The notes under the pieces were generated by a model. The model was not told the origin of the DNA. It made no database searches and was given only the letters and a program-made list of their open reading frames with translations. A DNA stretch of 64,000 nucleotides from Myxococcota bacterium (lineage in GTDB: Bacteria > Myxococcota_A > SURF-8), in contig OZ223209.1 in NCBI GenBank assembly GCA_965140415.1, positions 2,784,001 to 2,848,000 of the forward strand, read 5' to 3'. The position numbers and the translations under genes are program-made. Positions 6,689-8,453 of the stretch are shown here, piece after piece. Numbering within the stretch: position 1 is the stretch's first letter; the number at the start of each line of letters is the position of its first letter.

Positions 6689-6881
6689 TGCACCTCAATT
6701 GCCACATGAGATTAACCGAGAACGTAAAACAACCTTTCCCATCCTAGTCACAATCCCTTACAGGTCAATCGGAAAAATCGAAAAATTGGTAACGTAAACA
6801 AACTTCGTCATGGCAAATAGTAATCGTTGACGCTAGATGAGAAAGAGAGCTAAAGTAAAATGCAAAGGAGGTAGATGGCAT

Positions 6882-8357
6882 ATGGATGCGCCATTGACTT
6901 TGTCGCCAAAACTCTCTTATCAACTTTACGATTCCTGTTGCGTTGCTTTACTGCATGGAACGGGGCTTGTTTTGCGTTTGAATCGAGCCGCTGGGGAATG
7001 GTTCCGAGCGTTGGATCGAGGCGAAAAGACTGCCGCTCAACTCGATTCGAAATTCTCTAACTCATTGCAGAAACTTGGGATTCTTGTCAGTTCGAAGGAA
7101 AGTAAACAGGCGCATTCAGAAGCAGCAACAAAAATGCCTTCTGCTGGCCAGGCACAGGTGCTGGAACAGTTGACGATCGATGCTTGCAAGCTGCGTATTC
7201 CCATTCATGCTCAGCTCGAATTGACGTATCGTTGCCCATTGAAATGCGGGCATTGTTATTTGCGATCGGAGAAGCCGGACAAAGGGAGTGAGTTATCGAC
7301 GCGGCAAATATTTGACTTTCTGGATCAATGGGCGGAGCTTGGCGGTCTGTTTCTACTTTTAACAGGCGGGGAGGTGTTTTTACGTAACGATTTTAAGGAG
7401 ATTTTTACTCATGCACGTCGTCGCCGATTGGCCGTATCGTTATTGACAACGGGTTATGGACAATCGGAGAGCGACTGGTTGCAATTGATTGAACAGGGCC
7501 TGGATCAGGTGCAAATCTCGTTGTATGGCCCGGATGCAGGGACTCACGATGCATTTACGGGTGTTGCGGGATCGTTTGACTATGCCTGGAATGCCTTGGT
7601 GTTACTTAAGCGCTATGGCGTGCAGGTTCGGGCCGCGATTAGTGTGAACCAGAGTAATTTTGCGCTTGTGCAAGCTTTGACAAATCGTTTGGAAGACGAG
7701 GGGATACGCTTTAATTTCAACACGGATATGCTGCCCTTGCGCGATGGTCAACGCGTTTCTGCTGTCGTGCCTTTAGAAAACGATCAATTTGAGACGTTAG
7801 TTCGAATGTATCCCGACCATTGGACGCATGGACATATGACGGGTAAAGCGATGGGGGATCCTCCTTGCAATGCCGCCAGAGCGATGCTGGCGCTAGATCC
7901 ATACGGCAGACTTTCTCCTTGCCTGATGTGGCGTGAGTTTGCAGGTTCGATTGTGGATAATGAGAATTGTGAATTACCTGATAATATTGCTGTTGATAAC
8001 ATGGATAGTGTTGTTGATAACTTGTCTAATATACCGAAAATAAATGATAATACTGAAATTGATATTGTGAATAACTCTGTGGATAACTTTGTGGATAAGT
8101 CTGTTGAAAAGCTTGTTGATAACCCTGTGAATAACTCCTTGGCTCAGCTTTGGAATACGTCGGAAGTGTTTCTTTCCGCTGCGAATTTGTCGATGAAAGA
8201 TTTAGATGATTGTGCATCTTGTGAGCAGCGAGAAGTCTGCCGCAGATGTACTGGTCTGAATATGCAACGCGGTTTCTCAAAGAAAGAGCATTCTTTGGTT
8301 GACTGTTGGCAAACCAATGTGATATACAATATTCAGACTATGAAAGAGGAGAAGTAG
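6882..8357 (+). CDS. Radical SAM/SPASM peptide-modifying enzyme with probable N-terminal PqqD-like RiPP recognition element
   Basis: CPLKCGHC (CxxxCxxC), TGGE, and SPASM cysteines CNAAR...PC...CASC..VCRRC...C. AGGAGG RBS precedes ATG 6882. Confidence 0.9.
   Translation: MDAPLTLSPKLSYQLYDSCCVALLHGTGLVLRLNRAAGEWFRALDRGEKTAAQLDSKFSNSLQKLGILVSSKESKQAHSEAATKMPSAGQAQVLEQLTIDACKLRIPIHAQLELTYRCPLKCGHCYLRSEKPDKGSELSTRQIFDFLDQWAELGGLFLLLTGGEVFLRNDFKEIFTHARRRRLAVSLLTTGYGQSESDWLQLIEQGLDQVQISLYGPDAGTHDAFTGVAGSFDYAWNALVLLKRYGVQVRAAISVNQSNFALVQALTNRLEDEGIRFNFNTDMLPLRDGQRVSAVVPLENDQFETLVRMYPDHWTHGHMTGKAMGDPPCNAARAMLALDPYGRLSPCLMWREFAGSIVDNENCELPDNIAVDNMDSVVDNLSNIPKINDNTEIDIVNNSVDNFVDKSVEKLVDNPVNNSLAQLWNTSEVFLSAANLSMKDLDDCASCEQREVCRRCTGLNMQRGFSKKEHSLVDCWQTNVIYNIQTMKEEK
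7952..8134. repeat. Cluster of DnaA-box-like 9-mers inside the radical SAM CDS
   Basis: TGTGGATAA at 7952, 8078, 8090; TGTGAATAA at 8066, 8126; TGTTGATAA at 7991, 8012, 8114; TGTTGAAAA at 8102. Confidence 0.75.
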
Positions 8358-8360
8358 GTT

Positions 8361-8453
8361 ATGGAAAACCCGACTATCGAAATCGTTGAAGATCTGGAAG
8401 TAACCGACACTGCGGACGATTGTCAATACTGCGCTGGTCGTTCGATCTGCTGA
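8361..8453 (+). CDS. Putative RiPP precursor peptide MENPTIEIVEDLEVTDTADDCQYCAGRSIC (30 aa)
   Basis: ATG lies 3 nt after the rSAM stop, with GAGGAG/AGG upstream. Acidic leader-like N-terminus and a 3-Cys C-terminal core. Confidence 0.75.
   Translation: MENPTIEIVEDLEVTDTADDCQYCAGRSIC

Follow-up and report, generated by a model that had tools for sequence, protein, structure and literature searches.

We analysed a 64,000-nt stretch of the chromosome of a Myxococcota bacterium (G000:C1:2784001-2848000, hereafter the window, whose numbering is used below unless a genome coordinate is given), taken from a genome, G000, that consists of a single contig of 5,975,757 bp with 52.4% GC. The window contains a gene for a radical S-adenosylmethionine (SAM)/SPASM maturase of a ribosomally synthesized and post-translationally modified peptide (RiPP), whose SPASM domain is split by an in-frame insert that reads as an array of DnaA boxes. 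On balance, and with appreciable room for doubt, we consider the array likely to be an incidental look-alike of a DnaA-box cluster, namely a tetrapeptide repeat built in frame by slippage in a disordered loop of the SPASM domain. A 12-nt unit, xxT-GTG-GAT-AAC (x-Val-Asp-Asn), would have been amplified by replication slippage in the loop that follows the CX12GX4C hairpin; the older copies (7950-8065) would have decayed and the six younger ones (8066-8137) would remain recognizable as a tandem array, the maturase tolerating the insert as a disordered loop. The unit would spell the DnaA box by chance, T GTG GAT AA being the reverse complement of TTATCCACA, and because the unit itself spells the box, the apparent nine-box array would be a single coincidence that was later copied.

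The insert and its parts are the following:

7950..8138, + strand: lineage-specific in-frame insert of 63 codons (189 bp), IVDN...VNNS, between ...PCLMWREFAGS and LAQLWN.

7952..8020, + strand: three outlying boxes where the repeat has putatively decayed (TGTGGATAA at 7952, TGTTGATAA at 7991 and 8012), with GATAA cores between them.

8021..8065, + strand: AT-rich stretch coding for LSNIPKINDNTEIDI, with 10 G/C in 45 bases (22% GC, counted by eye).

8066..8137, + strand: tandem array of six 12-bp units, T-GTG-GAT-AAC-yy (x-V-D/N-N/K), as delimited by Tandem Repeats Finder.

The initial annotation of this DNA, made from the letters alone, had described an AT-rich segment of about 60 residues between PCLMWREFAGS and LAQLWN, and this description is accurate, the GC content being 30.7% in the insert and 48.0% in the remainder of the maturase gene. 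It had also listed nine co-oriented matches to the DnaA box. All nine sites are present on the + strand (TGTGGATAA at 7952, 8078 and 8090, TGTGAATAA at 8066 and 8126, TGTTGATAA at 7991, 8012 and 8114, and TGTTGAAAA at 8102), but only five of them fit the strict consensus TTATNCACA, three others having one mismatch and the last one two. In the three TGTTGATAA sites the mismatch falls on the invariant C6 of the box, and TGTTGAAAA is the site with two mismatches. The six sites reported at exact 12-bp spacing (8066, 8078, 8090, 8102, 8114 and 8126) are recovered by Tandem Repeats Finder as a period of 12 with 6.0 copies (8066-8137), units 1 and 6 being identical 12-mers and TGTTGATAAC being present three times; the array includes four "double boxes", pairs in one orientation 3 bp apart. 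The AT-rich stretch at 8021-8065, also as annotated, separates the outlying boxes from the tandem array and adjoins the box cluster. The insert has the make-up of an in-frame coding repeat: its copies run head-to-tail with a period divisible by 3, and the open frame continues into the Cys motifs downstream. In an AlphaFold2 model, residues 367-415 (in the 491-aa form of the protein) have a predicted local distance difference test score (pLDDT) below 50 and no secondary structure, the remainder being confident. Together with the existence of orthologs that do without the insert, this agrees with its earlier description as a protein loop, predicted here to be a disordered surface loop of the SPASM domain.

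Neither the reading frame nor the codons of the array require selection on the DNA. In the frame xxT-GTG-GAT-AAx a stop codon is impossible, and in a box array with a 12-bp period four of the six frames are necessarily open (both reasoned from the motif), so that an in-frame array needs no special explanation. Since all nine sites are copies of one 12-nt repeat unit, they count as one event, and the codons that they share would be inherited by tandem duplication of that unit and not independently maintained; we infer slippage as the origin of the insert. The initial annotation had seen a sign of DNA-level selection in the codon pattern. The pattern itself is as described, because the codons that precede the nine boxes all end in T (ATT, GCT, GTT, ATT, TCT, TTT, TCT, CTT and CCT) and Asp is encoded by GAT in 11 of 11 cases; its interpretation as selection is not supported. 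Four of the GAT codons are outside boxes, and T occupies the third position in 38 of the 63 codons of the insert, including 16 of the 27 non-box codons; T-ending and GAT codons being so common outside the boxes, the bias is insert-wide and not box-specific. Moreover, the Val codon in the boxes is GTG in five cases and GTT in four, and GTT breaks the consensus C6 in these four of the nine sites. Of the three positions at which a box allows a synonymous change, the third base of Val, which weighs most in the consensus, is the one that varies; the other two are invariant, both T, which is the state favoured by AT-biased mutation. The changes within the boxes run from G/C to A/T with one exception (T to A in GAA), and the positions that do not vary are already A/T, save the first base of the Val codon, a pattern that would fit AT-biased decay. 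The argument for DNA-level selection is therefore weak.

An alignment of homologs, suggested in the initial annotation, confirmed that the insert is restricted to one lineage. It is absent from all six ortholog open reading frames (ORFs) of related genomes, whose products are 33-45% identical to the maturase, as well as from six of six more distant homologs, a six-residue loop occupying its place; in two of the relatives, the residues aligned with query residues 372 and 433 are only 6 nt apart. Among 26 homologs of the maturase drawn from 5.8 billion protein clusters, the insert is common to one only besides the query, P0002, an 80% identical protein from a single 22,112-bp metagenome contig of a sister species. 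The insert of P0002 is of equal length, with 36 of 63 identical residues (57%), compared with around 83% identity elsewhere in the protein. Two of its boxes have lost the AA (VDQ and VDS), and the spacer residues (S, F, L and P, all with YYT-type codons in G000) are reshuffled; a shift of register by one unit aligns the two arrays slightly better (14/21 identical residues, against 15/25; hand count). The DNA coding for P0002 was not found by a related-locus search of metagenome contigs (416 pattern matches, none related) or of genome contigs (289 pattern matches, none related), nor was it returned among the matches listed by a scan of genomes for three boxes with a 12-bp period. A degenerate DNA pattern for MWREFAGSIVD had 0 matches in metagenome contigs, and of 57 candidate shorter protein fragments with the insert none scored. 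The orthologous loci of the relatives contain 0-2 boxes in around 4 kb, with no box cluster kept at that chromosomal place. Within the genome, a BLASTN search with the insert returned itself plus 14-nt chance words only; this search, showing no other copies, led us to reject an in-frame mobile element, such as a miniature inverted-repeat transposable element (MITE) or one resembling a Rickettsia palindromic element (RPE).

Low-complexity tandem repeats are error-prone in assemblies, and the insert could accordingly be an assembly artefact, a possibility to which we give practically no credit. The sequencing data consist of three runs of one study, none recorded as RNA, and the check for mis-assembly that had been advised found the insert unchanged in contigs of two of them, without variants or copy-number differences. 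In run X1 one contig spans the whole maturase gene, although X1 may be the source; in run X2 a 597-letter contig covers 7896-8357 with a word depth of 21. One X2 contig has a 4-letter insertion at 7895, outside the insert. The insert of equal length in the sister species, the open frame and the in-frame Cys motifs downstream likewise argue against an artefact.

Coding tandem repeats are frequent in this genome, in which we counted 174 tandem-repeat loci (period of at least 9, at least 4 copies), the period being divisible by 3 in 168 of them; this suggests a very large set of repeat proteins. Many of the repeat units hold GATGGCGAC-type words (Asp-Gly-Asp), with periods of 15 and 18 and up to 59 copies. 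We also searched genomes, one for each species, for runs of three strict boxes with a 12-bp period; this gave at least 122 loci, of which 80 were analysed. These 80 contain 98 arrays, 26 of which have an open frame of 150 codons or more running through their whole length; the x-V-D/N-K/N reading was used in 14 of the 20 loci with such open frames, and Pfam domains were present in 9 of the 17 array-bearing ORFs tested. Ten of the 80 loci are from Chryseobacterium. In four loci (L042, L075, L096 and L098), proteins with AlbA_2 and HATPase_c_4 domains, in some cases with HTH_24, have (T/S)VDK linker repeats that are spelled as perfect boxes at a 12-bp period:

L096:1201-1233; L098:1201-1245; L075:1201-1245; L042:1201-1257: box arrays of the AlbA_2 family, in two archaeal and two bacterial metagenome-assembled genomes (MAGs).

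The archaeal arrays are those of L096 and L098, whose record titles name Diapherotrites and Woesearchaeota archaea; the caveat applies that the taxonomy comes from these titles and that one of the contigs has a length of only 3.7 kb. Archaea use Orc1/Cdc6, and not DnaA, for initiation; the presence of the same box arrays in archaeal genes therefore indicates that coincidence of coding repeats with the box demonstrably happens. The (T/S)VDK repeats resemble the insert in their 12-nt, four-codon unit, in the x-V-D-K/N reading, in having TGTGGATAA at a 12-bp period, and in their location between folded domains, in genuine genes with Pfam domains on either side. They differ from it in forming an inter-domain linker of another protein family, in two cases in archaeal MAGs, in which DnaA should be unable to bind, whereas the insert breaks up the SPASM domain of an enzyme whose bacterial host has a canonical DnaA. 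Additionally, an rRNA methylase ORF of Pseudolactococcus (L100:1201-1245; PF06962, residues 45-187) contains HVDKYVNKYVNKYVNK inside the range of the domain, encoded by DNA with one perfect box and three that have one mismatch each.

Several results weigh against an incidental origin. First, a tandem-repeat unit that is a perfect box is expected only 0.013 times per genome (shuffled units), and since so few are expected within one genome, the coincidence is plausible only because very many genomes were scanned. Second, the codon before the box ends in T in 9 of 9 cases, against 59% of the non-box codons, with a probability of around 0.009 if the codons are independent. Back-translation of the insert with random synonymous codons, counting boxes with up to one mismatch, reached the observed count in 0 of 2000 draws with the codon usage of the genome, and in fractions of 0.002 and 0.013 with that of the rest of the gene and of the insert itself, respectively. 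This test assumes independent codons, an assumption that tandem copies violate; its significance was not accepted at face value, because tandem copies share codons by descent. Third, at the box positions P0002 keeps Val in 9 of 9 cases, has D, N or Y as the middle residue in 9 of 9, and has N or K as the third residue in 7 of 9; D, N and Y correspond to NAT codons and N and K to AAN codons, so these changes match what a constraint on TTATNCACA would tolerate. Constraint at the protein level, with Val at every fourth residue, would nevertheless explain the pattern kept in the sister species. Fourth, the insert is the densest box cluster of the whole genome, with 8 sites of up to one mismatch in 190 bp, compared with 5 and 4 in the next ones, an answer to the genome-wide check of box density for which the initial annotation had called. 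Finally, if double boxes are defined as co-oriented pairs 2-3 bp apart with up to two mismatches in all, the genome has 8 at three loci, 4 of them in the insert, and the reversed-genome control has 2. The window contains 7 copies of TGTGNATAA, where 1.69 would be expected, a count that none of 100 shuffles reached.

These results would be accommodated by a selected chromosomal DnaA-binding locus, either a titration sink or a regulator similar to datA or to the DnaA-box clusters (DBCs) of Bacillus, with the protein tolerating the loop in a case of true dual coding; we consider this unlikely, although it deserves serious attention. The locus would replicate late, around 88% along the right replichore. 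In Escherichia coli, according to excerpts of PMC11317965, co-oriented pairs at 2 or 3 bp are required for stable DnaA binding in vivo, the spacing of 3 bp is a favoured one, and double boxes mark 15 of 16 DnaA-bound regions. In Bacillus subtilis, a passage of PMC2533591 has local box density and affinity determining stable binding. The insert, which combines high local density with co-oriented pairs and holds half of the double boxes of the genome, agrees with both binding rules and, from its letters, looks like a very good DnaA substrate. The five consensus boxes and four pairs spaced by 3 bp make it probable that the DnaA of this organism binds the array incidentally, without selection for binding. 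Nevertheless, the insert lies inside ORF 6837-8357, in frame, whereas the stable DnaA sites of B. subtilis, eight in number, all lie between genes, again as given in that passage of PMC2533591.

The lineage uses TTATCCACA arrays, because its DnaA is canonical, with a full-length alignment to the DnaA of entry 8btg (E 4e-112), and because a three-box array elsewhere in the genome is conserved in another genus. The DNA-binding domain of this DnaA (L001:1501-2835, - strand) reads GGKDHATVINA, compared with GGRDHTTVIHA in 8btg, and two residues of the conserved recognition-helix motif differ between the two. Apart from the insert, box clusters were found at two loci only, at 230.9 kb and 3.286 Mb, both intergenic. 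The first (G000:C1:230876-230908; L004:3377-3409), with sequence TGTGGATAAccTGTGGATAAccccTGTGAATAA, has three boxes head-to-tail 5′ of a gene for a 414-aa product without a Pfam family, and is kept at the DNA level and in synteny, beside a homologous gene, in a relative of another genus (L025:1487-1621); situated inside the plateau of the skew minimum (see below), it is a candidate for oriC or for a DnaA-regulated promoter. The second (G000:C1:3286142-3286999; L003:3143-4000) comprises nine DnaA boxes, arranged as two groups of opposite orientation and including three double boxes, in a stretch of 1 kb that has no ORF and is flanked by a thioesterase gene and rsgA; it is around 0.15 Mb past the GC-skew maximum, hence terminus-proximal and far from dnaA, and could represent a relic origin or a locus akin to datA. 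These native arrays share with the insert the extended word TGTGGATAAC, the head-to-tail orientation and the TGTGAATAA variant, but are intergenic, have spacers of 2 bp (also of 0 and 4 bp) and lack the TGTT variant, the array at 230.9 kb being, moreover, conserved in its DNA across genera.

DNA-conserved box arrays inside ORFs do occur, to judge from two Anaerolineaceae MAGs (L046:1201-1245 and L091:1201-1233), and they lend some credit to a selected locus. The two have homologous ORFs of around 298 codons, with 42% protein identity, whose DNA is nearly identical over 3-4 perfect boxes at a 12-bp period and over an adjacent 16-bp palindrome, GTCCAGAAATCTGGAC, which codes for LSRNLD and recurs later in the L046 ORF. 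In their sequence, these ORFs look like initiator genes that hold an origin of their own, as gene O of lambda does. Their boxes, however, stay perfect over a far greater divergence, and those of the conserved array at 230.9 kb are perfect too, whereas in the insert 4 of 9 are degraded in G000, all four through GTT and one of them with two mismatches, and two more have lost the AA in P0002. The codon choice, although it departs from the random synonymous expectation, is not box-specific; the relatives without the insert have no compensating cluster at the locus; and similar arrays arise in archaeal genes.

The known loci of this kind resemble the insert in part. The DBCs of B. subtilis and datA and DARS of E. 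coli are, like it, dense groups of consensus or near-consensus boxes away from oriC, and the DnaA-bound regions of E. coli share with it the co-oriented pairs 2-3 bp apart (excerpts of PMC11317965). However, the DBCs are described as "eight intergenic regions" (passage in PMC2533591) and loci of the DBC, datA and DARS kind as "three non-coding regions" (passage in PMC4585315), and these loci are mostly origin-proximal, whereas the insert is coding and terminus-proximal. Another likeness is that of ori-lambda in gene O, where initiator-site repeats and an AT-rich region are in frame and translated as a linker; in lambdoid O genes, as a passage of PMC7466680 has it, two more iterons add 13 residues. 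There, however, the repeats bind the product of their own gene and fire an origin, whereas the host gene of the insert is unrelated to replication and the skew shows no origin. datA and DARS need sites for IHF or Fis. In the library of open-access full texts that was searched we found no description of a DnaA-box cluster within a chromosomal coding repeat or a radical SAM gene.

DnaA bound to the array might also act on transcription, by hindering RNA polymerase 220 bp 5′ of the gene for the probable precursor peptide (8361-8453) as a roadblock or attenuator, which would tie RiPP production to the initiator level or to the state of the cell cycle. In E. coli, the binding of DnaA to its boxes can be an obstacle that stops transcription. 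The precursor ORF begins 4 nt past the maturase stop, probably on one transcript that runs through the array, and DnaA is a transcription factor in other bacteria (excerpts of PMC11317965). We nevertheless regard such a roadblock as improbable: orthologous operons work without the insert, the objections from box decay and codon bias apply here as well, and a promoter and terminator scan of the insert gave weak promoter-like matches (9-10/12), as expected in AT-rich DNA. Sink and roadblock taken together, a selected DnaA function is something we lean against while granting it a tangible chance.

The position of the insert in the chromosome bears on two further readings. Along the genome, the cumulative GC skew reaches its minimum on a plateau at 0.16-0.5 Mb and peaks at 3.12-3.16 Mb; dnaA (148.8-150.1 kb) and dnaN (147.4-148.5 kb), both on the minus strand, are near the former, and the sole 16S gene is at 5.22 Mb, also on the minus strand. 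The skew minimum and the placement of dnaA-dnaN and 16S fit an origin near 0.2 Mb; a crude bias in the orientation of long ORFs was uninformative for placing it. The insert, at 2.792 Mb, is on the rising arm of the skew, around 0.33 Mb before the terminus and without a local inflection, and thus lies neither at the skew minimum nor in the vicinity of dnaA-dnaN. The initial annotation had argued that the site is not oriC, noting that dnaA and dnaN are not in the window; the genome bears this out, because the skew minimum and both genes are far off (0.15-0.5 Mb) and the site is near the skew maximum. A box array beside an AT-rich stretch, inside an ORF, does recall ori-lambda in gene O, and 12-bp-period arrays occur in an apparent oriC of Chryseobacterium. 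The stretch in question (L080:889-2183, Chryseobacterium sp.) comprises 1.3 kb without ORFs of at least 100 codons and holds 15 boxes, with several triple arrays at a 12-bp period; it is a probable oriC. For the insert to be oriC, a second origin, or the captured or relic origin of a mobile replicon is, however, very improbable, since the skew extremes and the marker genes place the origin elsewhere, the host gene codes for a maturase and not for an initiator, and the insert is single-copy in the genome. Rather unlikely, too, is a more specific form of the selected sink, in which a late-replicating dual-coding array, possibly also a brake on the precursor gene, would bracket the terminus together with the nine-box cluster at 3.286 Mb; if true, the cell would gain DnaA-binding capacity only as a round of replication draws to its close.

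The host gene and its neighbour have the following features outside the insert:

6837..8357, + strand: radical SAM/SPASM RiPP maturase gene, a 506-codon ORF (PF04055, E 6e-16).

7233..7256, + strand: CX3CX2C motif (CPLKCGHC) of the radical SAM [4Fe-4S] cluster, seen in the translation.

7866..7922, + strand: first SPASM element, CX12GX4C (CNAARAMLALDPYGRLSPC), just 5′ of the insert, seen in the sequence.

8211..8306, + strand: second SPASM element, CX2CX5CX2C (8211-8249), and last conserved Cys (8304-8306), 3′ of the insert and in frame.

8361..8453, + strand: 30-codon ORF, MENPTIEIVEDLEVTDTADDCQYCAGRSIC, a probable precursor peptide, starting 4 nt past the maturase stop.

P0001, the form of the maturase in the database, is 491 aa long, with Met16 (6882) as its first residue. 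SPASM domains have the Cys motif CX9-15GX4C ... CX2CX5CX2-3C ... C, and the protein contains both marks expected for its class, the CX3CX2C motif with the radical SAM core and the SPASM Cys motifs. In the 26 aligned sequences, C118, C122 and C125 of the former and C329, G342 and C347 of the latter (491-aa numbering) are invariant, and C444, C447, C453, C456 and C475 nearly so. The orthologs carry PF13186 (SPASM) and PF04055; PF13186 was undetected in the copy of the window by a Pfam search, probably because the insert splits the domain. The protein belongs to no curated NCBIfam family, all 44 matches being far under the cut-offs (best 93 bits, compared with 395); the best of these are models for radical SAM/SPASM peptide maturases, PqqE and NirJ-type enzymes. 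The AlphaFold2 model, built from the 26-sequence alignment, has a mean pLDDT of 85.1, and its top Foldseek matches are SkfB, SuiB, CteB, PqqE and anSME. The enzyme shares with SuiB, CteB, SkfB and PqqE the CX3CX2C motif, an N-terminal domain like the RiPP recognition element (in the model), the SPASM Cys motifs and a short Cys-rich precursor ORF nearby; it differs from the named SPASM maturases in reaching no curated family cut-off and in its undetected Pfam SPASM domain. The C-terminal part of the 30-codon ORF reads DDCQYCAGRSIC, and a ...DDC.YCAG..C peptide ORF is also found 3′ of the ortholog in five of the six related loci (L006, L007, L009, L010 and L012, but not L011), which argues for a RiPP maturase/precursor pair. 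No NCBIfam model matches the 30-aa peptide, which by its sequence is probably the precursor of an undescribed RiPP family and, if on the maturase transcript, is probably read through the box array.

If the array is incidental, as we think likely, it calls for caution, since a box in the frame xxT-GTG-GAT-AAx encodes a harmless x-V-D-N/K and never a stop; slippage can build in-gene "DnaA-box clusters", even in archaea, and finders of origins or clusters that rely on density only would therefore give false positives. A selected array would instead amount to a DnaA control locus of the chromosome placed within a protein loop, which would extend the dual coding of lambda O to the control of host replication. 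Either way, the insert offers a natural test of DnaA titration by a coding, transcribed box array.

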